A stretch of 64,000 bases of DNA from a virus (IMGVR_UViG_3300037502_003770:53643-117642); one strand, 5' to 3'; positions 15,856 to 34,640 are shown, numbered from the stretch's first letter. Notes: generated by a model not told the origin, from the letters alone. A program made the numbers and translations.

Positions 15856-16149
15856 ATGTTAGACATTATTTTATATATAGATTGCTTTCAATATATTGAG
15901 GCAACAATAGTGGATATCGGTTCACCAAAAAAAATCTTATTTAGATTAGATTTAAATAATAAAAATAGAATTTTTATTGAAATAAATAGATTTTCTTTAA
16001 AGAAAGGTTATTTTTCATTAATTAACTTTATAAAAGAACGCAAAATTTTATTTAATGATTTAGATTATATAAATATTTTAGATTTAAAATATTATTTTAA
16101 AATATCAAATTCTATCAAAGAGAAAGATTCTCACCTTGCTTTTCTCTGA
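15856..16149 (+). CDS. FamA-short protein whose 3' end runs into the antisense of TnpB-like copy 1
   Basis: MLDIILYIDCFQYIEAT...DLKYYFKISNSIKEKDSHLAFL. The last ~15 codons lie opposite the TnpB-like C-terminal coding region. Confidence 0.4.
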   Translation: MLDIILYIDCFQYIEATIVDIGSPKKILFRLDLNNKNRIFIEINRFSLKKGYFSLINFIKERKILFNDLDYINILDLKYYFKISNSIKEKDSHLAFL

Positions 16150-17495
16150 ATTTAACTGAAAAACTTTATAAGAATGTAAACATTCTTCAATAGAAACTCT
16201 ATATCTCATTTTAGAGTTTTTTATTTTAAGGTAAACTTCCTTCCAATCCTTACAATTAATAAAAGTTTCCTTCCATTGGTCTTTTATTAACAGATTTGGA
16301 TAAAAATTTCCCTTATTTCTTTTAATTATACATTCTATTCCCCTGCGTAAAATTTCTATTGAGGCATTAACAGCATCGCTGTAATCATATTGCAAATTGC
16401 CTATAATAGATGAATACGCAGGATTTATTCTGTATAATTTAATATCTTCAATAAATAACCTTTTTGAAAGATTTTCTATAAAAAGATTTCTTTTCCAAAG
16501 GTTATTATTTTTTCTATTATATTTTCTTCCTTGACCAGCATTTTTACTTTTAAAAGATAAGTCTTCAATAAAAACCGCTTTACAATTATAATACTTTGCA
16601 ACTAAAGAAATCTTCTTAGAGATTTCAATTACTTCATGTTTAATTTTATTCTGAAAGTACTTTGCTTCTTGAGAATCAGTTGATAATTTTAAGGAAATAA
16701 ATTTATCAGTTAGTTCTTTTAAAGAAAACTCTTGGCAATGAATAAGTTTATCATCTTCCATAATAGAAATACCTATATTATTAGGATTCATATCTATCCC
16801 TAAATATCTTTCTTTTGAAGGGAGAAATTTCTTTTCTTGAGATTTAAATTCTTCAAAAGAAATATAAATGTATTTTAAATCAAGTTTTACAGAAAATTTA
16901 TAACCATTCTCAAAACAATCAATATCATTTAATTCCTCAAGTTTAAATAATTCCTTTTTAATATTTCTTCTTAAAGAAGGGAGGTATAAAGGAATATGTA
17001 AATTTCTATTTACTTTAAAAGTGATTTTATTGTTATCAATAATATCTAATTCAAAATAAGTATTTCCTTTATTAGATGTTGTTCCTTGACAAGTAATAGG
17101 TGATAATTTATTTATTTTAAATTCATCATTACTTATCTTACCTTTACATCTTTCATAAAAGTTATTCTTTCCACCAAAAATAACTTTTTGATTTTGAAAT
17201 CTTGTATGAACATCTTTTCCTTCTAAAATAGCGTATTCTATTTGTTTAGAATTAAGCTTTCCAATATTATTTAAACCTTTAAGTAAAGATTTCATTTCTT
17301 TAATATCTGTTATCCCTTCAAAATATCTATTATATGAAAACCTTATTACAGAAGAGAATTGTTTCATTAAAGAATGGATTTCTTTTAATGAATTTACATC
17401 AGTAGTATAAGGCATTTTAATAGTTTTCAAAAGTCTTTAATGTTTATTATAAATAGTAAAAATAAATTATTTAGTATATAATTTTATAACGAATT
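16085..17495 (-). mobile_element. tnpB-like-only IS element, copy 1
   Basis: Shared 3' flank TAAAATATCAAAT just past the stop; shared left end tgtttattataaatagtaaaaataaatta at 17441-17470. Confidence 0.55.
16105..17430 (-). CDS. TnpB-like RuvC nuclease paralog 1 (no zinc-finger insertion in RuvC-III)
   Basis: RuvC-I GIDMNPNNIG, RuvC-II AVFIEDLSF, RuvC-III INPAYSSIIGNLQYDYSDAVNASIEI. No CxxC between PAYSS and DAxNA. Called start is TTG; the ATG 5 codons in gives MPYTT. Confidence 0.75.
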   Translation of the reverse strand: MKTIKMPYTTDVNSLKEIHSLMKQFSSVIRFSYNRYFEGITDIKEMKSLLKGLNNIGKLNSKQIEYAILEGKDVHTRFQNQKVIFGGKNNFYERCKGKISNDEFKINKLSPITCQGTTSNKGNTYFELDIIDNNKITFKVNRNLHIPLYLPSLRRNIKKELFKLEELNDIDCFENGYKFSVKLDLKYIYISFEEFKSQEKKFLPSKERYLGIDMNPNNIGISIMEDDKLIHCQEFSLKELTDKFISLKLSTDSQEAKYFQNKIKHEVIEISKKISLVAKYYNCKAVFIEDLSFKSKNAGQGRKYNRKNNNLWKRNLFIENLSKRLFIEDIKLYRINPAYSSIIGNLQYDYSDAVNASIEILRRGIECIIKRNKGNFYPNLLIKDQWKETFINCKDWKEVYLKIKNSKMRYRVSIEECLHSYKVFQLNSEKSKVRIFLFDRI

Positions 17496-17534
17496 TAATA
17501 TATAAATGTATTTATAAAATAAACTTTTCAAAAA

Positions 17535-17756
17535 ATGAAAATATTTATAGGAAATTGGTTGTTCACTTATGAAGAAATTAATTTAAAAGGTAAAATTGAA
17601 GTTTACTTTTGTATTCATTCTTTATATAACAGTCTTTTTATTTATCAACAAAAATCAAAAAAATTAACTATTTTAACTATAAATGATAATATAAAAAGAA
17701 TAAGTTTTAGTCGTTATACTCTTAATGTTCATAATTTAAACTATTATATAAACTAA
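17535..17756 (+). CDS. FamA-short protein
   Basis: MKIFIGNWLFTYEEIN; TAATG overlap with the permease start. Confidence 0.4.
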   Translation: MKIFIGNWLFTYEEINLKGKIEVYFCIHSLYNSLFIYQQKSKKLTILTINDNIKRISFSRYTLNVHNLNYYIN

Positions 17757-18568
17757 TGAAAAAATTATTATTACCATCTTTTATAGAAAAACCTTCTTTT
17801 AAAATAATACTTATCTCAAGTATTATTCAGTTTGTTTTAGCTATTTTATTTCTTGAATATAATGGTAATGAGGTATTACCTAAACCAAGTAAAGTTTTAC
17901 ATTCTTTGTATAGTATAGTTATTAGTAAAGATTTTATCTTTGATTTTGTTGCAACATTATCTATGATATTTAAGAGTATGTCGATAGCTATTTTAATATC
18001 ATTATTCTTTATATATTTAAGTTTAATACCTATATTTAGAAATATGGCACAATTCATTTCTAAATTAAGGTTTTTAACTTACACAGGTTTAGTATTTGTA
18101 TTTACTGTTATTTTTCATAATGGTTCAGACATTAAACTATCTCTATTCTTATTTGCTATTATTCCTTATTTTGTAACATCTTTACTTTCTTATGTAAAAG
18201 ATATACCACAAAAAGAATATGAGTTAGCTTATACTTTAAAATTTAATGAATTTAAAACATTATATGAAGTAGTAATAAAAGGTCAATTACATACAGTATT
18301 TGAAGTAATAAGACAAAACTTTGCAATAGCATGGATGATGATTACAAGCGTTGAAGCATACTCTATGAGTGAAGGAGGTTTAGGAACCATGATGATTAAA
18401 TCAAATAAATATTTAGATATGAATAGTGTTTTTGCTGTATTAATAATAATTTTAATACTTGGAATATTCTTTGATTATTTATTTGATGTTTTAAAAGTGT
18501 TCTTCTTTCCATATACAAATATAAAAAGGTATGAAAATTTTTGGATAAATAAACTTTTTAAGAAATGA
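17756..18568 (+). CDS. ABC transporter permease, NitT/TauT (SsuC/TauC-like) family
   Basis: LPKPSKVLHSL N-terminal motif; about 6 TM segments; ELAYTLKFNEFKTLYEVVIKGQLHTVFEVIRQNFAIAWMMITSVEAYSMSEGGLGTMMIKS matches the conserved permease loop. Confidence 0.7.
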   Translation: MKKLLLPSFIEKPSFKIILISSIIQFVLAILFLEYNGNEVLPKPSKVLHSLYSIVISKDFIFDFVATLSMIFKSMSIAILISLFFIYLSLIPIFRNMAQFISKLRFLTYTGLVFVFTVIFHNGSDIKLSLFLFAIIPYFVTSLLSYVKDIPQKEYELAYTLKFNEFKTLYEVVIKGQLHTVFEVIRQNFAIAWMMITSVEAYSMSEGGLGTMMIKSNKYLDMNSVFAVLIIILILGIFFDYLFDVLKVFFFPYTNIKRYENFWINKLFKK

Positions 18569-18930
18569 TAAATATCTTTACAGAAAACTTCTTTTATTTA
18601 GAAGGTGGTGTCGAAAACCCAATACTTCATATAAGAAAATATACTACTTTCTTATATTTTAATATAAATATTGTAGATTATTTTATAGAAAAACTACGTA
18701 ATTTTAAAGTTGTTTTATATCATTTTGGTGAATATAATTTCTTTAATTTAAAATATGATGCTCAAGTAAACATATTATATTATTTACAAATTAGTATAAA
18801 AAAATCTATTCTTAATAAACTTTCTTTTCCTTTAGCTAAGTTTATCTATGATTCTGCACAAATAGGTGGTAAACTTAGTGGTAAAATAAAAGCTAGTCAT
18901 GTACCAAATAAATACCTTTTTCCAAAATGA
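18565..18930 (+). CDS. FamA protein (FFYLEGG subtype)
   Basis: MINIFTENFFYLEGGVE; ATGA overlap with the permease stop. Confidence 0.55.
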   Translation: MINIFTENFFYLEGGVENPILHIRKYTTFLYFNINIVDYFIEKLRNFKVVLYHFGEYNFFNLKYDAQVNILYYLQISIKKSILNKLSFPLAKFIYDSAQIGGKLSGKIKASHVPNKYLFPK

Positions 18931-19280
18931 TACAAATATTTAATGAAAACTTCTTTTATTTAGAAGGTGGTTTACAAGATAATGTATATGATAGAATACT
19001 AAGTTGTTTTATCTACTTTAATTCTTTCATTCACGATTATTTTATTAGTAAATTTGATAAAAATAAAGTAGAACTAAATTTATATCATTTTGAGATATAT
19101 AATAAGATAGAACTAAATAGAAGTTATAAAAAAATTCCTTATGAAATAACATTTACTTTAAATAAATTTTTTGTAAAAAAAGCTTCTTTTTCTTTAGTAA
19201 CAAATATTTACAAATATGCAATATCTTGTGGAAATATTAAGAAAACTAACTTACCAAAGAAATTTCAAAATTTATGTTAA
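18927..19280 (+). CDS. FamA protein (FFYLEGG subtype)
   Basis: MIQIFNENFFYLEGGLQ; near-identical to 18565 at the 5' end; ATGA overlap. Confidence 0.55.
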   Translation: MIQIFNENFFYLEGGLQDNVYDRILSCFIYFNSFIHDYFISKFDKNKVELNLYHFEIYNKIELNRSYKKIPYEITFTLNKFFVKKASFSLVTNIYKYAISCGNIKKTNLPKKFQNLC

Positions 19281-19480
19281 TAAAAATAGAATTTTCAAAC
19301 AACAATAATTATTTTGAAACGGAAGTAGGAAGGTTTTATTTTCATTTTACTATAACCTTTTATTATGAATGTGTTCATATTCTTGAAAGTACATTAAATT
19401 ATATTTATATTAAATATAATAATGAATATTTATATAAAAATTTTCAAAATATTAATAAACTTAATTTAAAATATTATTAG
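19274..19480 (+). CDS. FamA-short protein (C-terminal NLKYY)
   Basis: MLIKIEFSNNNNYFETE...NINKLNLKYY. Confidence 0.45.
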   Translation: MLIKIEFSNNNNYFETEVGRFYFHFTITFYYECVHILESTLNYIYIKYNNEYLYKNFQNINKLNLKYY

Positions 19481-19485
19481 TAATT

Positions 19486-19710
19486 ATGTATACTTATATT
19501 ATAATAATAGAATTATCAAACGATATTAATTATTATGAAAGAGAGCAATTTGCGAGTTTTTATTTTCATTTTGTAATATCTTGTATTTATTATGAATGTA
19601 TGCGCTTTAATGAGAGTTTAATATTAATTTATATTGAACATAACGATAAAGATTTATATAATTATTATAAAAATATTAACAAACTTAATTTAAAATATTA
19701 CTTGTTTTAA
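19486..19710 (+). CDS. FamA-short protein
   Basis: ...IIELSNDINYYERE...NINKLNLKYYLF; paralog of 19274. Confidence 0.45.
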   Translation: MYTYIIIIELSNDINYYEREQFASFYFHFVISCIYYECMRFNESLILIYIEHNDKDLYNYYKNINKLNLKYYLF

Positions 19711-19728
19711 AAAAACCATTTTCAAAAA

Positions 19729-20520
19729 ATGATTACTTACAAAAAAGAAGAACTTATTTTATCAGTAAATGACCTTTCTGTAAAGTATGGTGATAAACAA
19801 ATATTAAAAGATATTTCTTTTGATATTCATAATATTACAAGACCAAATCTTACTCAAGGACAAATCATATCTATTTGTGGTAGAAGTGGTTGTGGTAAAA
19901 CATCTTTATTTAAAACTATATCAGGTTTTTTAAAACCAACAACAGGAACTATAAAAATAGGTGTTGAACAAAAAGATGTAATTATGGGTGAGGTTGGTGT
20001 TATTCAACAAGATTATCCTTTATTTAATCATAGAACTGTTTATGAAAATCTTTCTCTTAGTTTAAAAAACGTTAAGACAGATAACGAAAAGAAAGAAAAA
20101 ATACATCATTATTGCGATTTATTTAATCTTTTGGAACATTTAAATAAATACCCTTCACAACTATCAGGTGGTCAAAGACAAAGAGTATCTATATTACAAC
20201 AGGTATTAACTGAAAATAAGTTTATTCTTATGGATGAACCATTTTCAGGATTAGATGTTTTAATGAAAGATAAAGTTATTGAACTTATGTTAAAGGTTTC
20301 AAATCTTGATGAAATGAATACTTTAATAATAGTTTCTCATGATATTGAATCATCTTGCGCTATTTCTGATACTGTACATATTTTAGCAAATAAAGATAAT
20401 ACAGGCTCTACAGTTGTTAAATCATATGACTTTCTAAAAGAAAATCTTGCTTATAGAAAAGATATTAAAGATGATTATAATTTCAAAAGAATTATTAATG
20501 AAATAAAAAGTTTAATCTAA
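19729..20520 (+). CDS. ABC transporter ATP-binding protein (SsuB/TauB-like)
   Basis: Walker A GRSGCGKTSL, signature LSGGQRQRVSI, Walker B ILMDEPFSGLD, H-loop IVSHD. Confidence 0.9.
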   Translation: MITYKKEELILSVNDLSVKYGDKQILKDISFDIHNITRPNLTQGQIISICGRSGCGKTSLFKTISGFLKPTTGTIKIGVEQKDVIMGEVGVIQQDYPLFNHRTVYENLSLSLKNVKTDNEKKEKIHHYCDLFNLLEHLNKYPSQLSGGQRQRVSILQQVLTENKFILMDEPFSGLDVLMKDKVIELMLKVSNLDEMNTLIIVSHDIESSCAISDTVHILANKDNTGSTVVKSYDFLKENLAYRKDIKDDYNFKRIINEIKSLI

Positions 20521-20717
20521 TGCAGATACTTATTTATTTAGAAAGGCATTCAAAATATTTTGAATATTATTATGATAATTCTTTTGAAGAAAGTTTAGTA
20601 TTTGAAATTAGAACATCTTTTTCGTTTGAATTTGTTAAAAATTTTATAATAGAAATATGGGAAAAAAATAATGATTCTTGGTATTATTATAATAAATTAA
20701 AATATTACGTATGTTAA
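20520..20717 (+). CDS. FamA-short protein
   Basis: MQILIYLERHSKYFEYYY...NKLKYYVC; TAATG overlap with the ATPase stop. Confidence 0.4.
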   Translation: MQILIYLERHSKYFEYYYDNSFEESLVFEIRTSFSFEFVKNFIIEIWEKNNDSWYYYNKLKYYVC

Positions 20718-20911
20718 ATATAGGTATTATTATTTTAAATAATGATTTTCGTTATTATGAATATTTTATTGGTATATTTGTTTTTGAAATTGATAATTTT
20801 GTTTTTTCTGAAACTTTTGAAATTGGTTATCATATTAGACTAGAAAGTTTAAGAAAAAACGGTAAGCGTTATTTTATTGCAAATGTTTTTAATTTAAAAT
20901 ATTACTTATGA
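20711..20911 (+). CDS. FamA-short protein
   Basis: ...ILNNDFRYYEYF...NVFNLKYYL. Confidence 0.45.
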   Translation: MLNIGIIILNNDFRYYEYFIGIFVFEIDNFVFSETFEIGYHIRLESLRKNGKRYFIANVFNLKYYL

Positions 20912-21108
20912 TAAGAATAAATTTTAATAATGGTCTTTATGAAGAATGGTTACATAATTGTAATATATATACTTTTGTTACTTTAGTGTATTATTTTGAA
21001 TGTGTAAGCTTTTTAAATTCAAGTTTTCAAATTAATGAATTAAAATTTAAAGGGAATTATTTTTATTATAAAAATATTAATCTTCTTAATTTAAAATATT
21101 ACTTATGA
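20908..21108 (+). CDS. FamA-short protein
   Basis: MIRINFNNGLYEEW...NINLLNLKYYL; ATGA overlap. Confidence 0.45.
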   Translation: MIRINFNNGLYEEWLHNCNIYTFVTLVYYFECVSFLNSSFQINELKFKGNYFYYKNINLLNLKYYL

Positions 21109-21323
21109 TTCATATTTTTTCTCTTAATAAAAACATTTTTTATTCAGAAAAATTTATATTTAATGCTGATGTATTTCTTGTTCGTTTAAATATTAATAAT
21201 TATGTTGAAAGTATTATGTTTGATTATAATTTTATTCTATTAGAAATGGAATATTCGATGTTTATAGAAATTAATAAACTTCTTAAATTAAAATATTATT
21301 TAAGTTATTACTTATGGCTGTAA
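21105..21323 (+). CDS. FamA-short protein
   Basis: MIHIFSLNKNIFYSEKF...INKLLKLKYYL; ATGA overlap. Confidence 0.45.
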   Translation: MIHIFSLNKNIFYSEKFIFNADVFLVRLNINNYVESIMFDYNFILLEMEYSMFIEINKLLKLKYYLSYYLWL

Positions 21324-21523
21324 ATATATATTTAACAAATTCTTCTTATAGGGAAAGACAACATGAATATTATATTAGTAATATATTTCATAATGAAAAT
21401 ACTATTTTCAGTTCGATATATTCTTTACAATTAGCATCTTTAATAAAAAATAAAATCTTTTATTATTCAATAGTACAAAAATATAATACTGTTTTAAAAT
21501 TAAAATATTATTTATGGGAATAA
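21314..21523 (+). CDS. FamA-short protein (divergent N-terminus)
   Basis: ...NTVLKLKYYLWE. Confidence 0.4.
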   Translation: MAVNIYLTNSSYRERQHEYYISNIFHNENTIFSSIYSLQLASLIKNKIFYYSIVQKYNTVLKLKYYLWE

Positions 21524-21744
21524 AAATTTGTTTTAACAATACTACATGGAATTTTTATATTGAATTTTTTTCTTATAAAGAGTGTATTTTCACTATTAAA
21601 ATTTTATCTAATTTAATAACATCTACATTAATTGGAAATAAATTACAAGATGTTGTTTTAAAAATAAAAAATAATACACTATTAACAACTGATTCCATTA
21701 AAAACGTTACCACTAATGTTCTTAATTTAAAATTTTATATATGA
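21514..21744 (+). CDS. FamA-short protein (divergent)
   Basis: ...NVLNLKFYI. Confidence 0.4.
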   Translation: MGIKICFNNTTWNFYIEFFSYKECIFTIKILSNLITSTLIGNKLQDVVLKIKNNTLLTTDSIKNVTTNVLNLKFYI

Positions 21745-21956
21745 TAATAAGTATTAAAATTTCTAATAATAATTTTTCTTATGACGAAAATATTTCCAGT
21801 ATTTATGATAATACTATAATAACTAACTTATGGATTTTTAAATGTTTTGAAGATAGAATTTTTATTAACACAATAAATCAAATAATAGAAATGATTTACT
21901 ATATTACAATTAATAATTTCACAGTATACAGTAATAATAAATATTATAAAACTTAA
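21741..21956 (+). CDS. FamA-short protein (divergent, no KYY tail)
   Basis: MIISIKISNNNFSYDEN...; ATGA overlap. Confidence 0.35.
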   Translation: MIISIKISNNNFSYDENISSIYDNTIITNLWIFKCFEDRIFINTINQIIEMIYYITINNFTVYSNNKYYKT

Positions 21957-21965
21957 AGAACTAAA

Positions 21966-22193
21966 ATGAGAATAAATATTAAAATAAAAACATATTTCTT
22001 TAAATATGAAGAATTTAATTTAGTAGATGAAAATATGATAACTCATCTAGACCTTTCAAATATCTTTTATTTTGAAAGAAGTTATTTTTCTTTAAATGTA
22101 GATAATTATAAAATATATGCAATTTATAAAAATAGATTTCTTTATTTTGAAAATCGTGATGTTAATTTACTTAAATTAAAATATTATCTATGA
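21966..22193 (+). CDS. FamA-short protein
   Basis: MRINIKIKTYFFKYEEFNL...VNLLKLKYYL. Confidence 0.45.
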   Translation: MRINIKIKTYFFKYEEFNLVDENMITHLDLSNIFYFERSYFSLNVDNYKIYAIYKNRFLYFENRDVNLLKLKYYL

Positions 22194-22402
22194 GATTACA
22201 AATTGTTTTTAATTTTGGAGGTTATTATAGTGAACTTGATAAATATGTAATTGTTTACATTTATCCAAAATATTATGATATTTATTTTAATGATGTATTT
22301 TATTATATTGATTCAAATATAAAATTAATAGAAGTAAGGCATTTAAACAGCAAAAAATATTCTCGTGAATATAAAGATTTCATTTTAAAATACTATACAT
22401 AA
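22190..22402 (+). CDS. FamA-short protein
   Basis: MRLQIVFNFGGYYSELD...FILKYYT; ATGA overlap. Confidence 0.4.
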   Translation: MRLQIVFNFGGYYSELDKYVIVYIYPKYYDIYFNDVFYYIDSNIKLIEVRHLNSKKYSREYKDFILKYYT

Positions 22403-22612
22403 TGAAGATAGAAATTAAATCAACATATTTTACGTATTATGAAAGACTTGGTTATGATGTTCAAAATTATTTTTCTTTAAATTTAGATTGGATTTTTTTT
22501 AGAAGATATAGATTTATATAAAAATGAATTTATTATGAATTTTGTAGGTTTTGGTCAAAAATGTTTTTATTCAAAAAATAGTAATTTACTTAAATTAAAA
22601 TATTATATATAA
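22402..22612 (+). pseudogene. FamA-short gene frameshifted at a T9 homopolymer
   Basis: Frame a: MKIEIKSTYFTYYERLGYDVQNYFSLNLDWIFF... Frame b after GATTTTTTTTTAG: ...FFLEDIDLYKNEFIMNFVGFGQKCFYSKNSNLLKLKYYI ending at 22610-22612. Confidence 0.45.
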
Positions 22613-24000
22613 AATATTAAATTCTTTCAAAGACAAAAGTTTTCACCTTGCTTTTCTCTGAACTTAACTGAAAAACTTTATAAGAATGCAAACATTCTTC
22701 AATAGAAACTCTATATTTCAATTTAGAGTTTTTTATTTTAAGAGAAATTTCTTTCCAATCTGTACATTTAATAAAAGTTTCCTTCCAACGGTCTTTTATT
22801 AACAAATTGGGATAAAAATTTCCCTTATTTCTTTTAATTATACATTCAATTCCTCTGCGTACAATTTCTATTGAGGCATTAATAGCATCAGTATAATCAT
22901 GTTGCAAATTGCCTATAATAGACGAATACGCAGGATTAATTCTGTATAATTTAATATCTTCTATGAATAACCTTTTACTTAAATTTTCAAAAAACAGATT
23001 CCTTTTCCAAAGGTCATTATTTTTTCTGTTATATGTTTTTCCCTTACCAGCGTCTTTTTGTTTAAATGATAAATCTTCAATAAAAACTGCTTTACACTTA
23101 TAATATTTTGCAAGTAATGAAATCTTTTTTGAAATTTCAATTACTTCATGTTTAATTTTATTCTGAAAGTACTTTGCTTTTTCAGAATCAGTAGATAGTT
23201 TTAAAGAAATAAATTTATCAGTTAATTCCTTTAAAGAAAACTCTTGACAATGAATAATTTTATCATCTTCCATTATAGATATACCTATATTATTGGGATT
23301 CATATCTATTCCTAGATACCTTTCTTTTGAAGGAAATTTCTTTTCTTCATATTTAAATTCTTCAAAAGATATATAAATATATTTTAAGTCAAGTTTTACA
23401 CAAAATTTATATCCTTTCTCACCAAACTTTATATCATTTAATTCTTGAAGTTTAAATAATTCTTTTTTAATATTCTTTCTTAAAGAAGGAAGGTATAAAG
23501 GTATATGCACATATTTATTTACTTTAAATATAATTTGATTATTATCAATTATATCTAAATTAAAATAAGAATTTCCTTTATTATTAGTTATTCCTTGACA
23601 CGTAATAGGTGAAAGTTTATTTATTTTAAATTCATCTTTACTTATTTTAGCTTTACACCTTTCATAAAAATTATTCTTTCCTCCGAAAATAACCTTTTCA
23701 TTTTGAAATCTTGTATAAACATCTTTTCCTTCTAAAATAGCATACTCTATTAGTTTAGAATTAAGTTTATTTATATTATTTAAATTAGAAAGTAAAAATT
23801 TTATTTTCTTAATATCAGATATCCCTTCAAAATATCTATTATAGGAGTACCTTACTACAGAGGAGAATTGTTTCATCAAAGAATGAATTTCTTTTAATGA
23901 AGTATCATCTGTAGTGTAAGGCATTTTAATAGTTTTCAAAAGTCTTTAATGTTTATTATAAATAGTAAAAATAAATATAATTTTTTTAACAAATCATTTT
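22598..24000 (-). mobile_element. tnpB-like-only IS element, copy 2, immediately 5' of tRNA-Met
   Basis: Shared 3' flank TAAAATATTAAAT; shared left end at 23951-23980. Confidence 0.55.
22617..23939 (-). CDS. TnpB-like RuvC nuclease paralog 2 (no zinc-finger insertion)
   Basis: 440 aa, near-identical to copies 1 and 3; GIDMNPNNIG, AVFIEDLSF, INPAYSSIIGNLQHDYTDAINASIEI. Confidence 0.75.
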   Translation of the reverse strand: MKTIKMPYTTDDTSLKEIHSLMKQFSSVVRYSYNRYFEGISDIKKIKFLLSNLNNINKLNSKLIEYAILEGKDVYTRFQNEKVIFGGKNNFYERCKAKISKDEFKINKLSPITCQGITNNKGNSYFNLDIIDNNQIIFKVNKYVHIPLYLPSLRKNIKKELFKLQELNDIKFGEKGYKFCVKLDLKYIYISFEEFKYEEKKFPSKERYLGIDMNPNNIGISIMEDDKIIHCQEFSLKELTDKFISLKLSTDSEKAKYFQNKIKHEVIEISKKISLLAKYYKCKAVFIEDLSFKQKDAGKGKTYNRKNNDLWKRNLFFENLSKRLFIEDIKLYRINPAYSSIIGNLQHDYTDAINASIEIVRRGIECIIKRNKGNFYPNLLIKDRWKETFIKCTDWKEISLKIKNSKLKYRVSIEECLHSYKVFQLSSEKSKVKTFVFERI

Positions 24001-27721: not shown

Positions 27722-28351
27722 ATGGTAAACAATTTTAAACAAGTTAAAAACATATTATCTTTTGAAGATAAAAATGATTTCTATTTAGTAGAAATTATTA
27801 AAAGAAAGAAAGATAATTCTCATGATTCTTCTTTTAAAAAGAATGAAAAACATATAAAAAGGTTTTATATTAATAATTTAGAAGATTTTGATGAGAAACA
27901 AAACTCAATAATAGAAACTTGTATTAGAAATAATGCAAGGGCGTATATCAAACTTAATAAACGCAATCATAAACATATAGCAAAAGTTATGAATGTAAAA
28001 CTCGCTGAAATTTTACTTCATGATAATAACGATGAATATAAAAGACTCGAAACTTTATATTCAAAAGTAACAGGAAAATATTTTGTAAATAATGATAAAA
28101 AGTTTATTATAGATTTAGATGAAAAAGACCTTCATTTAAAAGAAGAAATACTTACATATTTAAAAACTCATAATGACTTTAAATTTTCTTTACATAAAGA
28201 GGATTTAGTAATAGATACATTCCCATCAAATACTGGTCTTCATATTGTTACTAAAAAATTTAATTTAAATATATTTAAAAAGAAATATCCAAATATCGAT
28301 GTACATTCTGATAATATGGTCTTACTTTTCTTTAATAATCAACCTTTATAA
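27722..28351 (+). CDS. hypothetical protein
   Basis: 209-aa ORF; no domain. Confidence 0.45.
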   Translation: MVNNFKQVKNILSFEDKNDFYLVEIIKRKKDNSHDSSFKKNEKHIKRFYINNLEDFDEKQNSIIETCIRNNARAYIKLNKRNHKHIAKVMNVKLAEILLHDNNDEYKRLETLYSKVTGKYFVNNDKKFIIDLDEKDLHLKEEILTYLKTHNDFKFSLHKEDLVIDTFPSNTGLHIVTKKFNLNIFKKKYPNIDVHSDNMVLLFFNNQPL

Positions 28352-28355
28352 GAGA

Positions 28356-28426
28356 TAATTTTTTAACAAAAAAGAATCTTTCTTGTAATATAAATCAATT
28401 CAATGTTCAACTAAACAAAAAAAACA
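28356..28426 (+). promoter_or_regulatory. degenerate TPC cassette copy (leader type 1)
   Basis: ttttttaacaaaaaagaatctttcttgtaatataaatcaa...ctaaacaaaaaaaacaATG. Confidence 0.4.
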
Positions 28427-29100: not shown

Positions 29101-30723
29101 ATGAAAATAGAAAACAGAATAGAAAAAGCTATTTCTTTATACGGAAATAATTCAACTGAAAATTTAAATGATTTTAATTTTTTTAATTGTAGTAGAGAAG
29201 AATTAATTTCATCAAAAAAACACTACGAATATATAAGTGGTCGTGATAATTCAATTCCAGAAAATGAAGTTGAATTATATATAAAAATATTGGGAAAAGA
29301 AAAAATAAAATCTTATATTTTAGAAGATTTAAAAAATATAGATAATTTAAATTATTATTTCAGAAGGAATTTAGAAAATTTAGATTTTACTATTTCAGAT
29401 TTAATAAACAATAGACAGTATTTACCAGAATTGTTAGATTATGATAATTCATATAGATTTTATAGTTTATTATCTAATAGTTTAAAAGAAAATAATTTTG
29501 ATGAGGTTGTTTTATTTTTATTAGAATATATATTTATTAATAATGATTATTGGCAAACATATTATACTTTTTATGATACTTTTTTATCTAAAAATCCAGA
29601 TTTATTTAAAAGAAATAAAGATATTCTTTTAGAAAATCTAATACAATCAATAAATAGTCAAAATATTTTAAATATTTTTTCTTTAATTATATGTAATATT
29701 GAATTAGATTTATCTACTGTAAAAGAAATTTATAACTTAATAAATTTATACGATTTAAGTTTACCAAAATTTATTTACGATTCATTTGATAACTCACGTT
29801 CTTTAGAATATGATAAAAGAAATAATAACCCATTAAAAAATAACTTAACTTTATTTTATGATTATTATCTATCATTAGATAGAGATAAAAATATTATAAA
29901 ATATTCTGACCATATTTTTTATGACAATCATATTGTAAATCAAATTTTTATCGAAAAATTAAAAGAAATTTACACAAAAGAGTATATTATTGAAAATCCT
30001 AATTCTTTAAAAAATAATAAGATTCTAAATATGTTAATTAATAATAAAATATTAAATACTGATATTTATAATCTTTTATTAGAAAACAATATTGAAAATG
30101 TGTTTACTGTTGGATATAGTTATCGTTTTCATGATAATTATAAATTTATAAAAATAAAAATTTATGAAGTATTAGATATTTATGTCAATAATAAATATTA
30201 TATAAATTCATTTAAAAGTGAAACTATGTATAGTATTTTAAATAATACATTAAATAAATTTTCTAAAATTGAATTAGTTTCTATTTTAGAAAAATATTTT
30301 ATACCAATATTTGATTATTTTACTGAGATTGAAAAGAAAGAAAGAGAAAATAGGGTTTATTCTGATGAGCTTTTATATGATGATAGAGTTGATGTTGAGG
30401 AATATAAAAATGATTTTTACAATTCAAAAAATGATTTTATTTTTTTAGTTGAATGTTTCATAATCAATATATTGAATATTAAACAACAATATGAATTAAT
30501 AACCAAATATGATTATAAATTAATTGATGTTATAAAAAAACCAAAAACAAGTTTATTTTTAAAACTTGCTTCCTTTGATAATAATTATTTTATGAGATAT
30601 TTATTTCTTTTAAAACTTAACAATTATGAGAATATTTCGTATTATAGAAAGGAACAAAGAAAAACTAAAAGTAAAAGTTTAAAACATTCAGGTGATGCCA
30701 TGTTGGTAGCAAAATCTTGTTAA
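29101..30723 (+). CDS. hypothetical protein (540 aa, N/Y/I-rich)
   Basis: Long ORF; no domain. Confidence 0.5.
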   Translation: MKIENRIEKAISLYGNNSTENLNDFNFFNCSREELISSKKHYEYISGRDNSIPENEVELYIKILGKEKIKSYILEDLKNIDNLNYYFRRNLENLDFTISDLINNRQYLPELLDYDNSYRFYSLLSNSLKENNFDEVVLFLLEYIFINNDYWQTYYTFYDTFLSKNPDLFKRNKDILLENLIQSINSQNILNIFSLIICNIELDLSTVKEIYNLINLYDLSLPKFIYDSFDNSRSLEYDKRNNNPLKNNLTLFYDYYLSLDRDKNIIKYSDHIFYDNHIVNQIFIEKLKEIYTKEYIIENPNSLKNNKILNMLINNKILNTDIYNLLLENNIENVFTVGYSYRFHDNYKFIKIKIYEVLDIYVNNKYYINSFKSETMYSILNNTLNKFSKIELVSILEKYFIPIFDYFTEIEKKERENRVYSDELLYDDRVDVEEYKNDFYNSKNDFIFLVECFIINILNIKQQYELITKYDYKLIDVIKKPKTSLFLKLASFDNNYFMRYLFLLKLNNYENISYYRKEQRKTKSKSLKHSGDAMLVAKSC

Positions 30724-30739
30724 CAATAAAAATCTTTTT

Positions 30740-31012
30740 ATGGAAAAAATAGAACTGCAAGAAGTGGAAATTATGGATGAAGATACTATTTCTTCAAAAC
30801 AAATAGTCCTTTATAATGACGATTTCAATACATTTGATAATGTTATTAAATGTTTAATGGTTTATTGTAAACATGTGTATGAACAAGCACTACAATTTGC
30901 TATGCAAGTGCATGAAAAAGGTAGATGTTCCGTTAAAGAGGGTTCATATAAAGAATTAAAACCTATTTGCGAGGCTTTACTTGAGAAAGGTTTATCAGCT
31001 CAAATAGAATAA
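30740..31012 (+). CDS. clpS: ATP-dependent Clp protease adaptor ClpS
   Basis: 90 aa; VLYNDDFNTFDNVIKCL...AMQVHEKGRCSVKEGSYKELKPICEAL matches the ClpS core. Confidence 0.8.
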   Translation: MEKIELQEVEIMDEDTISSKQIVLYNDDFNTFDNVIKCLMVYCKHVYEQALQFAMQVHEKGRCSVKEGSYKELKPICEALLEKGLSAQIE

Positions 31013-31019
31013 AAGATAT

Positions 31020-31523
31020 ATGAAACATAACATACAACAAGAAAAATTTTCTTTATTTATTGAAAAAAATTTCATAATAGAATATGAAAAAAATACCACA
31101 TCATATAGAATAGATGTTTATAATGATGTAAAAAAATATGATAAATATCTTATTGACAAATATATTAAAACGGATGATACTTTTCGAGTACTAAACTTAT
31201 TTCAAAATTTAAAATTAGAATATTATAATGGTTTATTATCATTAAATTTTGAAAGAAAAGAACATATTTATATAAATTATAGTTCTCTTGAATATGGTAC
31301 TCAACATAATAAAGAAAAATTCCTAAACGAAGTAATTAAATATTTACCGCAAACAGATTTAACTAAAAAAATAGATTTTTCTAAAAGAAATATTTTTGGT
31401 AGTACAAATCATGTATTTATTAAAGACATACCTTTTTTTAATGAAAAATTTATTCCATTAAATGTAGAACCTTATGTAAAAAATGCTATTACTAATAATA
31501 ATTTTTTAATAAATTATATATAG
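31020..31523 (+). CDS. hypothetical protein
   Basis: 167-aa ORF. Confidence 0.45.
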   Translation: MKHNIQQEKFSLFIEKNFIIEYEKNTTSYRIDVYNDVKKYDKYLIDKYIKTDDTFRVLNLFQNLKLEYYNGLLSLNFERKEHIYINYSSLEYGTQHNKEKFLNEVIKYLPQTDLTKKIDFSKRNIFGSTNHVFIKDIPFFNEKFIPLNVEPYVKNAITNNNFLINYI

Positions 31524-31542
31524 TAAGGATATTATTCACCGT

Positions 31543-31619
31543 TTTAACAAAAAACATTATTTCTTGTAGTATAAATCAGTTCAAACAAAACAACAATTAA
31601 ACAAAAACAATTTTCTCTT
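31543..31619 (+). promoter_or_regulatory. degenerate TPC cassette copy (leader type 1)
   Basis: ttttaacaaaaaacattatttcttgtagtataaatcagttcaaacaaaacaa... Confidence 0.4.
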
Positions 31620-32429
31620 ATGAAAAGATTCCTTTTCCTCTTATGTACAATCATTACTTTAGTATCGATGCAATCATGCGAAATGATTGAATCTGGATAT
31701 GTTGGTATCAAAGTTAATAAAACTGGTGATAATCAAGGTGTTCAAAACATAGTAGAAGTTACTGGGTGGTGTTTCTATAATCCAATTACAAGTAGTATTT
31801 ACGAGTTTCCAACACACGTTCAACACGTAGATTATGAAGCTTTTGAAGTAGGTGCTAAAGATGCTGCATTATTTACTATTAAACCATCATTAAATTATAT
31901 GGTTTCACCAAGTAAAGTACCATTTATCTTTGTTAAATATAGAAAACCTTTAAATGAAATTGAACAACAATTTATCAGAACTACATTATTTGAAGCTTAT
32001 AAAATTTCAGCAAACAGGTATAGTTCAGATAGTTTACTTAAATCAAGACAAATCTTCGAGGATAATGTAAGAAAAATCTTGGTTGATTCTTTAGGAAAAG
32101 ATGGTTTTATTTTAAATCAACTAACTTGTAATATCTCAATTCCAAAAAGTTTGCAAGAATCTATTGAAAGAAAAAATAATAGCGTTCAGGCATCAATGCA
32201 AGCAGAGAATGAAGTTAAAACAGCTGAGGCTAATGCCAGAATTGCAATTGCCCAAGCCAATGGAGAAGCACAGGCTGCATTAATCGCAGCGAAAGCTGAG
32301 GCTGAAGTAAATAGACTACGTCAACAAAGTTTAACACCTTTGCTTATTCAACAGCAGTATATTCAAAAATGGAATGGTGTTTTACCTCAATATGGACAAG
32401 TTCCTTCTTTAATGAAACAAGTTCAATAA
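31620..32429 (+). CDS. SPFH/band-7 domain lipoprotein
   Basis: Lipobox LVSMQSC; C-terminal Ala/Glu-rich AEANARIAIAQANGEAQAALIAAKAEAEVNRLRQQ typical of SPFH/HflC-type proteins. Confidence 0.6.
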   Translation: MKRFLFLLCTIITLVSMQSCEMIESGYVGIKVNKTGDNQGVQNIVEVTGWCFYNPITSSIYEFPTHVQHVDYEAFEVGAKDAALFTIKPSLNYMVSPSKVPFIFVKYRKPLNEIEQQFIRTTLFEAYKISANRYSSDSLLKSRQIFEDNVRKILVDSLGKDGFILNQLTCNISIPKSLQESIERKNNSVQASMQAENEVKTAEANARIAIAQANGEAQAALIAAKAEAEVNRLRQQSLTPLLIQQQYIQKWNGVLPQYGQVPSLMKQVQ

Positions 32430-32449
32430 GAAGAAATAAAATTATATTA

Positions 32450-32486
32450 AAAGACTTCTATTTTAAAAGATAGAAGTCTTTTTAAA
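32450..32486 (+). terminator. intrinsic terminator (TPC-hairpin relative)
   Basis: aaagacttctat-tttaaaag-atagaagtcttt 12-bp stem. Confidence 0.65.
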
Positions 32487-32497
32487 TAAAGATAAAT

Positions 32498-32809
32498 ATG
32501 TTTATAAAAATAATTATAACAACAAATACATTTTTCTATTCTGAATGTATTACTAGTATATATGGGAATGGTAGTAGTTTATTATATTGTGAATATATCA
32601 ATAGTCAATACTGTTTTAATTTTGAAAAAGCTACTGAATGGAATGCTTATTTCAAAATTAATGAAAATTTATGGATTACTTTTCAATTACCTATGTCAGA
32701 TTTTCATTTAAATGATGTGTATTTATTTTTAGACTTTCGTGATAAACATTCATATAATAATTTATCTAATTTTTTTAAAAAATTTAAACCAAATGAATAT
32801 AAATATTAA
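32498..32809 (+). CDS. FamA protein
   Basis: MFIKIIITTNTFFYSECIT. Confidence 0.5.
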   Translation: MFIKIIITTNTFFYSECITSIYGNGSSLLYCEYINSQYCFNFEKATEWNAYFKINENLWITFQLPMSDFHLNDVYLFLDFRDKHSYNNLSNFFKKFKPNEYKY

Positions 32810-33293
32810 TACAGAACATTGTTTTTATCAAGAAATTAATTATTATTTAGAATATAATATTAAACCAATTTTTATTTTAATAAATAAGTTTTTTTCTGAG
32901 GAATGGTTTCTTCCTTTAATTGGTATAACTTATTTTTATAATAATTTATTTCATAATAAAACAGTTAAATCTTTAAGAAAAACTCATCTTTATGAATATA
33001 TATTATTAAGTTTTTTACGTATTAGGATGAAACTTGATAAATTAAATAAAACCACAATAAAACAAAGTGTTGATAATTTTATTCATCATACACATATAAC
33101 ATATTATACAGAAAATATTTGTAAAGAATTAATAAAATATTATGGTATTGAAATTATTAAATTTTTACCAAATAAATTCTTTACTAAAAAACTGTATATT
33201 TTTATGTATGATTTATTAGGCAATGAATTGCTTTCTTTACATAAAATATCAAATTCTTTCAAAGACAAAGGTTTTCACCTTGCTTTTCCTTGA
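32793..33293 (+). CDS. FamA protein whose 3' end runs into the antisense of TnpB-like copy 3
   Basis: ORF track 32739..33293; motif MNININTEHCFYQEIN from ATG 32793; tail ...KISNSFKDKGFHLAFP lies opposite the TnpB-like C-terminus. Confidence 0.4.
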   Translation: MNININTEHCFYQEINYYLEYNIKPIFILINKFFSEEWFLPLIGITYFYNNLFHNKTVKSLRKTHLYEYILLSFLRIRMKLDKLNKTTIKQSVDNFIHHTHITYYTENICKELIKYYGIEIIKFLPNKFFTKKLYIFMYDLLGNELLSLHKISNSFKDKGFHLAFP

Positions 33294-34640
33294 ATTTAAC
33301 TCAAAAACTTTATAAGAATGTAAACATTCCTCAATAGAAACTCTATATTTCAATCCAGAGTTTTTTATTTTAAGGGAAACTTCCTTCCAATCCTTACATT
33401 TAATAAAAGTTTCCTTCCAACGGTCTTTTATTAATAGATTTGGATAAAAATTTCCCTTATTTCTTTTAATTATACATTGAATTCCTCTGCGTACAATTTC
33501 TATCGAGGCATTAACAGTATCAGTATAATCATGTTGCAAATTGCCTATGATAGATGAATACGCAGGATTTATTCTGTATAATTTAATATCTTCAATAAAT
33601 AATCTCTTTGAAAGGTTCTCTACAAACAAATTTCTTTTCCAAAGGTTATTATTTTTCCTGTTATATGTTGTTCCTTTACCAGCATTTTTATCTTTAAAAG
33701 ATAAATCTTCAATAAAAACAGCTTTACAATTATAATATTTTGCAATCAAAGAAATCTTTTTTGAAATTTCGATTGTTTCAAATTGTATTTTATTTTGAAA
33801 GTACTTTGCTTTATCAGAAGAAGAATCTAATTTTAAAGAAATAAATTTATCTATTAACTCTTTTAAAGAAAATTCTTGACAATAAATAAGTTTATCATCT
33901 TCCATAATAGAAATACCTATATTATTAGGATTCATATCTATTCCTAGATATCTTTCTTTTGAAGGGAGAAATTTCTTTTCTTCATTTTTAAATTCTTCAA
34001 AAGAAATATAAATATATTTTAAATCAAGTTTAATAGAAAATTTATAACCTTTTTCAAAATTAGGTTTTACATCATTTAATTCTTGAAGTTTATACAAATC
34101 TTTTTTAATATTTTTCCTTAAAGAAGGTAAATATAAAGGTATATGTAATTTTTTATTTACTTTAAAAATGATTTGATTATTATCAATTATATCTAATTCA
34201 AAATAAGAATTTCCTCTATTATTGGTAACACCTTGACACGTAATAGGTGAAAGTTTATTTATTTTAAATTCATCTTTACTTATATTTCCTTTACATCTTT
34301 CATAAAAATTATTCTTTCCACCAAAAATAACCTTTTGATTTTTAAATCTTGTGTGAACATCTTTTCCTTCTAAAATAGCGTATTCTATTAATTTAGAATT
34401 TAAATCTTGAATATTATTTAAACCTTTAAGTAAAGACTTTATTTTTTTAATATCAGTTATTCCTTCAAAATACCTATTATAAGAAAACCTTACTACAGAA
34501 GAGAATTGTTTCATTAAAGAATGAATTTCTTTTAATGAATTTACATCAGTTGTATAAGGCATTTTAATAGTTTTCAAAAGTATTTAATGTTTATTATAAA
34601 TAGTAAAAATAAATTATTCTTTTAACAAATAGAAGTCTTT
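33232..34640 (-). mobile_element. tnpB-like-only IS element, copy 3
   Basis: Shared 3' flank TAAAATATCAAAT; shared left end at 34589-34618, then ttttaacaaatagaagtcttttctgtattata which matches the 3' half of the TPC hairpin. Confidence 0.55.
33249..34577 (-). CDS. TnpB-like RuvC nuclease paralog 3 (no zinc-finger insertion)
   Basis: 442 aa; GIDMNPNNIG, AVFIEDLSF, INPAYSSIIGNLQHDYTDTVNASIEI. Confidence 0.75.
   Translation of the reverse strand: MKTIKMPYTTDVNSLKEIHSLMKQFSSVVRFSYNRYFEGITDIKKIKSLLKGLNNIQDLNSKLIEYAILEGKDVHTRFKNQKVIFGGKNNFYERCKGNISKDEFKINKLSPITCQGVTNNRGNSYFELDIIDNNQIIFKVNKKLHIPLYLPSLRKNIKKDLYKLQELNDVKPNFEKGYKFSIKLDLKYIYISFEEFKNEEKKFLPSKERYLGIDMNPNNIGISIMEDDKLIYCQEFSLKELIDKFISLKLDSSSDKAKYFQNKIQFETIEISKKISLIAKYYNCKAVFIEDLSFKDKNAGKGTTYNRKNNNLWKRNLFVENLSKRLFIEDIKLYRINPAYSSIIGNLQHDYTDTVNASIEIVRRGIQCIIKRNKGNFYPNLLIKDRWKETFIKCKDWKEVSLKIKNSGLKYRVSIEECLHSYKVFELNSRKSKVKTFVFERI

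Follow-up and report, generated by a model that had tools for sequence, protein, structure and literature searches.

Within the window, by which we mean the whole 64,000-nucleotide stretch of DNA analysed here, a small mobile element occurs as three intact copies in the genome of a very AT-rich, large phage (Table 1). Each copy consists of a short left end with a promoter-like segment, a tnpB-like open reading frame (ORF), and a right end. The boundaries follow from the DNA conserved among the three copies, which begins at ..AATAATTTATTTTTAC and ends at ..GAATTTGATATTTTA. The left end, of about 40 nt, is made up of the tip AATAATTTA and a promoter-like TTTATTTTTAC..TATAAT segment, and the right end (...GAATTTGATATTTTA) finishes 7 nt past the stop codon. 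All copies have a fixed orientation and are located at intergenic cassettes of the phage.

Table 1. Features of the three element copies and of related sites in the window.
Feature	Coordinates	Strand	Basis or remark
Copy A ORF, zinc-finger-less TnpB homologue	16105..17430	minus	441 aa from TTG
Copy B ORF	22617..23939	minus	440 aa
Copy C ORF	33249..34577	minus	442 aa
Element copy A: left end with promoter-like segment, tnpB-like ORF, right end	16098..17471	minus	three-copy DNA conservation
Element copy B	22610..23976	minus	conserved-DNA boundaries among copies
Element copy C	33242..34618	minus	conserved-DNA boundaries; orthologous insertion in related phage contig L069/L070
Copy A omega-RNA-like scaffold	16098..16299	minus	last ~65 codons + 7 nt past stop; covariance model 187 bits
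Copy B omega-RNA-like scaffold	22610..22811	minus	covariance model 185.3 bits
Copy C omega-RNA-like scaffold	33242..33443	minus	covariance model 186.6 bits
Copy A candidate guide, flank directly 3' of right end	16078..16097	minus	copies diverge right after ATATTTTA
Copy B candidate guide	22590..22609	minus	flank consists of a gene-leader motif that recurs in the phage
Copy C candidate guide	33222..33241	minus	within 3' end of opposite-strand phage ORF 32739..33293
Candidate TAM/target motif of copy B: GTTAAAA, 5' of the element	23984..23990	minus	
Candidate TAM of copy C: GTTAAAA, 5' of the element	34620..34626	minus	
Empty GTTAAAA site; related phage carries an extra element copy here	31542..31548	minus	L072 compared with window 31513-31600
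Fourth element, a different TnpB	9085..10311	minus	matches NF040570

The three ORFs lie where the original prediction placed them, and all are intact. A TTG codon is probably the true start of each, since LKTIKMPY aligns with the MKTIKLPY (ATG, GTG, or TTG) of relatives; counted from it, the catalytic residues of copy A are D213/E289/D352, and counted from the Met of MPYTT they are D208/E284/D347. The motifs quoted for these proteins (RFSYNRYFEG, GIDMNPNNIG, AVFIEDLSF, and INPAYSSIIGNL..SDAVNASIEI) were all found, with a GNL-to-SDAV spacer of four residues (QYDY) instead of the seven first reported, and the tail that follows the RuvC-III Asp, earlier put at about 95 residues, is 89 aa long. 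Mutual identity had been given as 85–90%; the measured pairwise values are 85–87% for protein and 86–92% for DNA.

An intact RuvC active site is a constant feature of these proteins. In a diverse family alignment, the D/E/D residues, which follow the order RuvC-I, II, and III, are found in 106/106, 106/106, and 105/106 members. The predicted structure of the copy A protein has a WED-REC-RuvC fold that matches solved TnpB and Cas12f structures over its full length, including WED and REC, the parts of TnpB and Cas12f that hold the guide RNA and the heteroduplex. Together, the intact triad and the TnpB/Cas12f-like predicted fold bear out the identification of the three proteins as RuvC nucleases of the TnpB superfamily. 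The proteins had no match in a Pfam search, which included PF01385 (OrfB_IS605) and PF07282 (the TNB zinc finger), and did not reach the threshold of NCBIfam NF040570 (guided_TnpB); two further NCBIfam models gave sub-threshold matches, TIGR01766 (E 1.3e-3, 19 bits where 32 are required) and TIGR01765 (E 3e-3). Because the curated TnpB models (PF01385/PF07282, NF040570) stay below threshold, TnpB homology rests mainly on the predicted structure. Comparison with a TnpB alignment using hhalign gave an E value of 1.1e-4 and a probability of 57%, with the aligned part stopping exactly at YSS/YTS. In a PDB profile search each of the top three matches was Cas12f or a Cas12f-like protein, with a residue-for-residue alignment running from RuvC-II to PxYTS; the remaining five were Cas12 effectors matched at the same profile positions. 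The sequence-level signals for TnpB homology are weak but consistent.

Where TnpB normally has a zinc-finger (TNB) domain of ~35–45 residues, the three copies have 11–15 residues. The same distance separates YSS from the RuvC-III Asp in 104 of 106 diverse family members, and paired CxxC motifs occur in none of 128 full-length family representatives. In the window copies the PAYSS-to-DAVNA segment is, as reported, free of CxxC..CxxC. In known TnpB and Cas12f structures the TNB domain touches nucleic acid, and its absence could alter or abolish cleavage of dsDNA. TldR, a nuclease-dead TnpB-like repressor, was ruled out as an identity, as its RuvC site is inactivated whereas the triad is intact here. 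Neither the earlier statement that the finger is invariably there in classic TnpB nor the notion of an unrecognised branch without it is supported: the C4 finger is stated to be missing from some large TnpB branches and from RIIIr-4, a major clade enriched in viruses (Altae-Tran et al. 2023, PMC10691335), a member of the present lineage has carried the annotation ‘ISCaje4 transposase TnpB’ since 2010, and JGI labels lineage members ‘IS605 OrfB family transposase’. The fourth element, offered as a classic zinc-finger comparator, turned out to be unsuitable: its TNB domain has degenerate Cys, with C-x8-C in place of a C4 finger, and its clade has 0–3 Cys. The RuvC-II Glu of this element is replaced by Gly, and a 24-nt segment upstream of it is common to copies A and C.

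A structured RNA that covaries strongly is encoded at the 3' end of each gene, in the final ~200 nt that run to the sharp right end ...ATATTTTA. In an alignment of 18 sequences, 87% of cells are paired compared with 30–49% in slid controls, with compensatory changes in 18 pairs, and 0 of 500 shuffles were as good. The covariance model, part of whose signal is accounted for by conserved codons, detects the RNA in 46 homologues, ISCaje4 of phage CP220 among them, in each case at the 3' end. With 41 distinct sequences, pairing reaches 90% of cells (29–46% when slid), and double changes are seen in 26 of 28 pairs. The RNA has four covarying helices, is kept across relatives as distant as 31% protein identity, and stops exactly at the element boundary, the transition from scaffold to flank being sharp after (G/A)TATTTTA in three clades. 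A single G-U pair is retained in 28 of the 30 sequences with letters at both columns, which argues for an RNA of the sense strand. The copy A scaffold has a folding z-score of −2.25, and synonymous divergence drops over this scaffold, dS being about halved in the last 90 codons. No omega-RNA family in Rfam, including RAGATH-18, matched at the gathering threshold or at E values up to 10, and no terminator-like site was found. The covarying 3' RNA and its sharp boundary fit an omega-RNA scaffold with a guide taken from the flank next to it; by analogy with TnpB, the flank 3' of the right end would act as this guide. Because the covarying RNA is positioned at the 3' end, the three proteins are very probably RNA-guided, in agreement with the original prediction of a candidate RNA-guided nuclease.

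The lineage to which the window proteins belong is large and mainly phage-borne, with at least 1356 clusters at 50% identity; among its members are ISCaje4, from Campylobacter phage CP220, and copies carried by Lak megaphages. We found no functional study of this lineage in the literature. Many large phage contigs commonly hold multiple copies of the element. The CP220 homologue, with 35–38% identity to the window proteins, has a resolvase-like remnant upstream, and in eight relatives an IS607-type TnpA lies directly upstream, with a Resolvase domain (PF00239) and, in one of the two that were scanned, a MerR-type HTH. No serine recombinase or tnpA gene was found beside the window copies or anywhere in the 64-kb window, and in place of the upstream tnpA region the window copies retain just the short left-end tip.

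Insertions are found 3' of an AT-rich TTAAAA motif. In a clade at 55% identity the left-flank motif is (A/G)TTAAAAAT in 7 of 10 independent insertions, and GTTAAAA flanks copies B and C and an extra copy in the related phage L072; copy A and the copy in L071 fit TTAAAA poorly, and the candidate TAM is not sharply defined. The extra copy in L072 occupies a GTTAAAA site that is empty in the window, a case of presence/absence polymorphism. The window copies are old and under purifying selection, with dS of 0.33–0.45 and dN/dS of 0.17–0.25 among the three, and dN/dS of 0.12–0.25 across six related copies. These dS values, and the fact that copy C has an orthologue in a phage of just ~90% identity, run counter to the earlier view that the similarity of the copies indicates recent mobility or gene conversion.

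We consider it probable that the three loci are compact derivatives of IS607-type transposons that lack a transposase of their own and encode an RNA-guided TnpB-type nuclease with a 3' omega-RNA scaffold. The lineage would be that of an IS607-type transposon living mainly in large phages, with no transposase gene at the window loci. Its protein retains the D/E/D active site and an architecture of WED, REC, and RuvC, has lost the TNB insertion, and has gained a conserved C-terminal domain of ~90 aa without metal ligands. The last ~200 nt of the mRNA, comprising C-terminal codons and the right end, form a conserved multi-helix scaffold, in which one long-range helix closes onto the right-end motif. 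By analogy with characterised TnpB, this scaffold and ~16–20 nt of adjoining flank may be processed to an omega RNA, which would direct the nuclease to DNA bearing the flank sequence beside an AT-rich TAM, tentatively TTAAAA. The putative target is the unoccupied site of a sister phage or of one that co-infects the cell; once cut there, the DNA would be repaired by recombination, and the element would thereby be restored or spread, in the manner of restorative homing or a gene drive. The sole filled/empty comparison, L072 against the window, has a flanking duplication of ~68 nt, so that the flank past the right end and the stretch behind the TAM of the empty allele are not the same sequence. 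This mismatch does not fit simple insertion and restorative homing. More tentatively, it is possible that the family is a distinct, mostly phage-restricted TnpB lineage in which the C-terminal domain takes the TNB role, with an omega RNA unrelated to the known families and almost wholly in the CDS and an AT-rich TAM (~TTAAAA) unlike that of other IS607-type systems, acting as a gene drive between co-infecting large phages at their own intergenic regulatory cassettes.

The absence of tnpA from 64 kb, the age of copies that purifying selection still holds, the orthologous insertion in a related phage, the fixed orientation at intergenic cassettes, and the common multi-copy occurrence in large phage contigs would also suit a domesticated phage weapon in place of a selfish transposon. 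Such copies would be immobile, because no transposase is nearby, and would be retained because flank-derived guides act on competing phages or host DNA during co-infection, by cleavage or binding, in the way that T4-like phages use free-standing homing endonucleases or that miniature Cas12 systems encoded by phages work. We think this rather unlikely: the candidate guides are merely adjoining flank, there is no array, and both the presence/absence polymorphism and the autonomous TnpA-bearing relatives point to an ordinary transposon life cycle. Mechanistically it overlaps with the transposon-derived nuclease proposed above, because homing is also a form of competition.

A RuvC-fold nuclease that works without RNA guidance, such as a structure- or sequence-specific DNA endonuclease, would account for the missing TNB domain, the failure of every curated TnpB or Cas12 model to reach threshold, and the lack of any Rfam omega-RNA match, RAGATH-18 included, with the RNA being only a cis element (a transcript stabiliser, terminator, or recombinase-binding end). 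It is very unlikely given that the fold match extends over the regions that hold guide RNA and heteroduplex, that four helices covary in an RNA conserved to 31% protein identity and ending exactly with the element, and that a terminator-like site was not found. That the copies are decaying, functionless relics, as their divergence and the absence of an adjoining transposase might suggest, is scarcely credible in view of three intact ORFs, low dN/dS among them, the retained triad, and the compensatory changes that maintain the RNA pairs. Least credible of all, the zinc site was suggested to have shifted into the C-terminal extension (GIECII..FINCKDWK..IEECLHSYK), where the last 90 residues of the window copies hold three Cys and one His, but these lack conservation: of 106 family members just 8, 10, 19, and 10 have Cys/His at the four positions, where F, K, or gaps are most frequent, and the clade at 55% identity has GFEYRI, TKYKDW, and DEV.. 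instead.

If active, the proteins would be TnpB-type RNA-guided nucleases able to work without any TNB zinc-finger domain, which would bear on the role of that domain and on the diversification of Cas12 effectors, and would provide a candidate editor of ~440 aa with an AT-rich TAM from a lineage missed by standard TnpB models. In huge phages (the lineages of Lak, of CP220-like phages, and of this 313-kb phage), multi-copy RNA-guided elements located at regulatory cassettes may be a common, overlooked cause of both genome mosaicism and phage–phage competition. A covarying RNA that overlaps a conserved protein domain is, in addition, a clean natural example of dual coding.

The elements are not a new kind of system; zinc-finger loss in TnpB branches and phage TnpB are both documented. 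Fanzor2 (mimivirus L79, PDB 9b0l) has a zinc finger and a relocated RuvC-II Glu, whereas the window family has the canonical Glu and no finger. In contrast to type V Cas12f (Cas14), the window elements have no CRISPR array, cas genes, or zinc finger; no array was found within 8000–36000, and PADLOC gave no match to any Cas model, Cas12f included. The RIIIr-4 clade, over-represented in viruses, likewise lacks the C4 zinc finger, but its RuvC-III Asp is changed to His (Altae-Tran et al. 2023, PMC10691335), whereas the window family keeps Asp in 105/106 and, in relatives, has a serine recombinase as partner. With the IS607 family, including ISCaje4, the likeness lies in the MerR-HTH/resolvase-type TnpA directly upstream in relatives and in the RNA also matched in CP220. 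Typical IS607 elements have GG ends, insert at or after GG, and use G-rich TAMs (AGGAG/GAGGG) and RAGATH-18 omega RNA (review PMC13565253); the window elements have AT-rich ends (AATAATTTA ... ATATTTTA), a left flank of TTAAAA(AT), and no RAGATH-18 match. The TnpB/omega-RNA (OMEGA) nucleases of IS200/IS605 and IS607 (ISDra2 TnpB; ISFba1 TnpB, PDB 8iaz) are alike in size (~400–450 aa), in the predicted WED-REC-RuvC fold and D/E/D triad, in a structured RNA that shares the 3' portion of the gene and extends as far as the transposon right end, beyond which the flank varies, and in the coexistence of transposase-less and autonomous copies. The window family differs from them in having 11–15 residues in place of the ~35–45-residue TNB insertion, in falling outside the Pfam/NCBIfam TnpB models and, for its RNA, outside Rfam, in its extra conserved C-terminal domain of ~90 aa, and in a scaffold that, in the window clade, is almost wholly within the CDS, with just 7 nt of right end past the stop.

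Copies A, B and C of the element each carry an intact open reading frame, translated without interruption on the minus strand as the original prediction had it, and their TTG start lines up with the MKTIKLPY start in relatives. Pfam gave no match to these proteins, NCBIfam only matches to TIGR01766 and TIGR01765, both below threshold, and PHROGs none. PADLOC also returned no match to the element protein and, with no other supporting sign, an association with CRISPR was rejected. In an alignment of 106 sequences the putative RuvC triad is almost invariant (Asp in 106, Glu in 106 and the last Asp in 105), so a nuclease-dead regulator could be rejected as well. The YSS strand lies 11–15 residues from the RuvC-III Asp in 104 of the 106 members, and paired CxxC motifs occur in none of 128 full-length representatives. 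An AlphaFold model made with this alignment reached a pLDDT of 94.3 and a pTM of 0.87, replacing one from a shallow 21-sequence alignment (pLDDT 56). A profile search of the PDB gave eight matches, all of them Cas12-family or Cas12f-like, in weak but consistent agreement, and the three that were aligned residue by residue span RuvC-II to PxYTS; with the shallow alignment, the search gave a chance match only. Comparison with a TnpB alignment by hhalign (E 1.1e-4) ends exactly at YSS/YTS, where TNB, the zinc-finger domain usual in TnpB, would start. Taken together, the alignment, predicted structure, PDB profile matches and hhalign result indicate that copies A–C are TnpB-superfamily proteins truly without the zinc-finger insertion, and both the TnpB assignment and the missing finger are thus upheld.

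The C-terminal extension is kept family-wide, with P373, K399, Y405 and R406 each present in at least 90% of members, and it is a high-confidence region of the model. It had been proposed to hold a relocated zinc site. Its Cys and His residues lack conservation (C362 in 8, C388 in 10, C412 in 19 and H414 in 10 of the 106 members), which leaves that site without support, and it was rejected.

A tblastn search found homologues with 53% identity in an uncultured phage of 462 kb, with 35–38% in Lak megaphages, and also in Campylobacter phage CP220, where the protein is annotated 'ISCaje4 transposase TnpB' and lies behind a resolvase-like remnant. The family is an extensive one: clusters at 90% identity gave 873 matches, many called 'IS605 OrfB family transposase' by JGI, and clusters at 50% identity at least 1356 at E <= 1e-3; among the 150 clusters listed, most are 400–500 aa long and most of those cover the profile almost to its C-terminal end. 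In BFVD the family is represented by proteins of gut Myoviridae, with a TM-score of 0.83 to the AlphaFold model, and, for Campylobacter phage F379, by split copies. A scan of metagenome contigs with a single protein as query found no relatives, the peptide patterns being too specific. The contig index, queried for an exact match to the window protein, gave none. In genome contigs, a closer alignment found 13 loci only, the closest on contigs binned into MAGs and the rest distant Bacillus/Clostridia TnpBs with 22–28% identity. The closest 'cellular' matches (46–50% identity) are on short contigs of a Candidatus Gracilibacteria MAG (L073) and an Omnitrophota MAG (L075), and may represent mis-binned phage DNA or a hint of host range. 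Homologues at loci L036, L040, L041, L044, L048, L049, L053, L054, L056 and L068 have in-frame TAG interruptions, as would fit recoding of this stop codon in the phages concerned; these are IMG/VR contigs of 111–554 kb, several above 200 kb, with the exception of L054 (9.7 kb). Lak phages have been reported to recode TAG.

DNA similarity among copies A–C has its left limit ~40 nt 5' of the start, at AATAATTTATTTTTACTATTTATAATAAAC, and its right limit 7 nt past the stop codon, at GAATTT(G/A)ATATTTTA, and these sharp limits define each copy as a discrete ~1.37-kb unit. Directly beyond (G/A)TATTTTA, different insertions are unrelated in sequence, and this break is the predicted boundary between scaffold and guide (the flank 3' of the right end), as expected for an omega RNA. 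In eight relatives, a protein of ~200 aa is encoded directly upstream of tnpB; both of the two scanned contain a Resolvase domain and one a MerR-type HTH, which identifies it, by predicted domains, as an IS607-type serine recombinase. In other relatives this gene is reduced to an HTH fragment or to a decayed remnant, after which comes TTTATTTTTAC..TTATAA, the promoter-like segment also found 5' of the window ORFs. No serine recombinase gene was found in the 64-kb window, and the copies there seem to have arisen by deletion, which joined the left-end tip AATAATTTA, common to the ACAATAATTTAA left end of a related group of elements (the 55% clade), to the tnpB-proximal segment. A 24-mer is identical 5' of the ORFs of copies A and C and of the fourth TnpB, an unrelated element (chance expectation 0.08), and copy B matches 20 of its 24 bases. 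It could be either a left-end/promoter module common to two different TnpB elements or a phage promoter captured by both. At the right end of copy C, a phage ORF extends 45 nt into the element, which therefore supplies its last 14 codons and stop codon; the counterpart in a related phage has 176 aa, compared with 184 aa in the window. The orthologous pair of copy C shows a 33-nt indel directly 3' of the element right end.

Coordinates of the elements and neighbouring features in the window
Feature	Position	Strand	Remark
Copy A	16098..17471	-	ORF 16105..17430
Copy B	22610..23976	-	ORF 22617..23939
Copy C	33242..34618	-	ORF 33249..34577
Fourth TnpB	9085..10311	-	
24-mer AATAATTTATTTTTACTATTTATA	10332-10355	-	5' of fourth TnpB
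24-mer AATAATTTATTTTTACTATTTATA	17448-17471	-	5' of copy A ORF
24-mer AATAATTTATTTTTACTATTTATA	34595-34618	-	5' of copy C ORF
Cassette copies (examples)	14525-14603, 28332-28410, 31513-31591, 45244-45322, 54558-54636, 54980-55058	+	repeat
Further cassette copies (examples)	55819-55897, 58275-58353, 61405-61483, 61899-61977, 62287-62365	+	repeat
Phage ORF entering copy C	32739..33293	+	
Overlap of this ORF with copy C	33249-33293	both	
Region of leader copies	19400-22630		long ORFs scarce
~68-nt promoter/5'UTR segment	31513-31600		region compared with L072; segment single-copy in window
ORF with repeats	58829..59824	+	repeats at 58908-59659

Several lines of evidence point to an RNA encoded within the 3' codons. 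In the last 80 codons, synonymous differences among copies A–C drop from ~0.2 to 0.06–0.10 per comparable codon, with no drop in amino-acid differences, and for six related copies dS at the gene 3' end is about halved in almost every pairwise comparison. The last ~200–240 nt to the right end were aligned across three clades with proteins 33–56% identical to the window copies, and RNAalifold predicted two conserved elements. One is a hairpin within the KNxKLKYRV codons, in which changes at the variable codon x are matched by the Arg codon used (TCT-AGA, TTG/TCG-CGA, GCG-CGT/CGC, CTG-CGG); the other is a long-range helix from the VFQ(L/Q)NS codons to the right-end motif GAATTT(T)G(T/A)A. With the structure extended by a further hairpin, placed in the variable EECLHSY segment, 87% of cells in this alignment are paired compared with 30–49% with slid partners, compensatory changes occur at 18 pairs, and none of 500 shuffles matched the observed values. 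The resulting covariance model found the RNA at the homologous gene 3' end in 46 loci, including CP220 ISCaje4 and Lak-like contigs, all outside the training set except the three window copies. For 41 distinct RNA sequences, in an alignment fitted to the model and biased towards it, 90% of cells are paired (29–46% when slid), with double-sided changes at 26 of 28 pairs; both the slid controls and the independent result from the MAFFT alignment speak for real covariation. One G-U pair favours a sense-strand RNA, being preserved in 28 of the 30 sequences with letters at both columns. For copy A, the 202-nt region has a folding z-score of −2.25, and no Rfam family, RAGATH-18 included, was found for the element RNA.

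In the 55% clade, (A/G)TTAAAAAT lies directly outside the left end in 7 of 10 independent insertions, and in the window clade GTTAAAA precedes three insertions: copy B, copy C and one that a related phage carries as an extra copy. The window lacks an element at the site orthologous to this extra copy, where its sequence runs from GTTAAAA directly into CGGTG, so the motif belongs to the target. It is the loop of a phage cassette read on the opposite strand, which accounts for all copies being intergenic and antisense to phage genes. TTAAAA is our candidate for the target-adjacent motif (TAM), but a tentative one only, since copy A and the relative at locus L071 fit poorly. When the window was searched for guide targets, candidate guides A and B matched only a repeated gene-leader motif with a different 5' neighbour, and candidate guide C was unique. 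The extra copy in contig L072 is flanked by two diverged ~68-nt promoter/5'UTR segments (L072 2385-2470, 3825-3896). Such a bracketing duplication would not be expected of an IS607-type insertion, and it prevents a simple TAM/guide-target reading from a single filled/empty pair.

The cassette is intergenic, with at least 11 copies in the window, each having a hairpin (AAGACTTCTTT TTTAACA GAAAGAAGTCTT) ahead of TTTTTTGTAATATAAAT (for family D4, TTGTAATATAAAT); it resembles a terminator joined to a phage promoter. The TnpB elements adjoin its TTTTAAC loop. Leaders of the CTTAAATTAAAATATTAtnT type form the right flanks of copies A and B, and many copies of this motif, followed by ATG, in the region of scarce long ORFs suggest a family of small paralogous genes. 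Another ORF contains six ~105-nt tandem-like repeats and encodes a repeat-domain protein, its motif being ..(N/D)G(K)L(I/L)SDTW(Y/F)D... Given its G+C content of 18–27%, the location of almost all ORFs on the + strand, a single tRNA-Met, the cassettes, PHROG matches that include an ATPase, an RNA ligase and phage proteins without assigned function, and the exact copy A protein on a record from a 312,694-bp JGI contig, the window was taken to belong to a large phage genome.

The original prediction also took the similarity of the copies, measured here at 85–87% protein identity, as a sign of recent mobility or gene conversion. This finds no support: dS among them is 0.33–0.45, and copy C has an ortholog in a phage contig that shares ~90% identity with the window. 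Their dN/dS is 0.17–0.25, and six related copies have dS up to 0.60 and dN/dS of 0.12–0.25. These substitution patterns indicate that copies A–C are old and selectively maintained, with no recent burst, and with the intact ORFs they led to rejection of a pseudogene reading.

The most likely mechanism, in our analysis, is that of a standard OMEGA system operated by a variant without TNB. The nuclease would partner with an omega RNA derived from the gene 3' end, its scaffold written inside the coding sequence and its guide drawn from the adjoining flank; the variant would be marked by the missing TNB domain, a new C-terminal domain and an AT-rich target motif. The fourth TnpB, previously regarded as a 'classic' comparator, cannot serve as one: C-x8-C is all that its TNB segment offers, and members of its clade have 0–3 Cys, so it too is without a C4 finger. 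It has an invariant Gly at the RuvC-II Glu position (..TLVVGRNK..) and an invariant EE just ahead of YTSK, an arrangement resembling the rearranged RIIr-5 or 'pro-Fanzor' type (PMC10691335). Downstream of it lie ~370 nt of non-coding DNA, for which a scan of the whole window against Rfam gave nothing at gathering threshold.

For zinc-finger-less TnpBs, our literature search found only a 2023 classification and no function or structure paper. In that work, Altae-Tran et al. reported loss of the C4 zinc finger in some large branches and described RIIIr-4 as a major, virus-enriched clade without it (PMC10691335), and the claim of an unrecognised architecture therefore lacks support. RIIIr-4 is defined by a RuvC-III Asp-to-His change (PMC10691335), whereas the window family retains the Asp (105 of 106). 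For IS607, GG ends and G-rich TAMs are reported (PMC13565253), in contrast to the AT-rich target preference of the window lineage.
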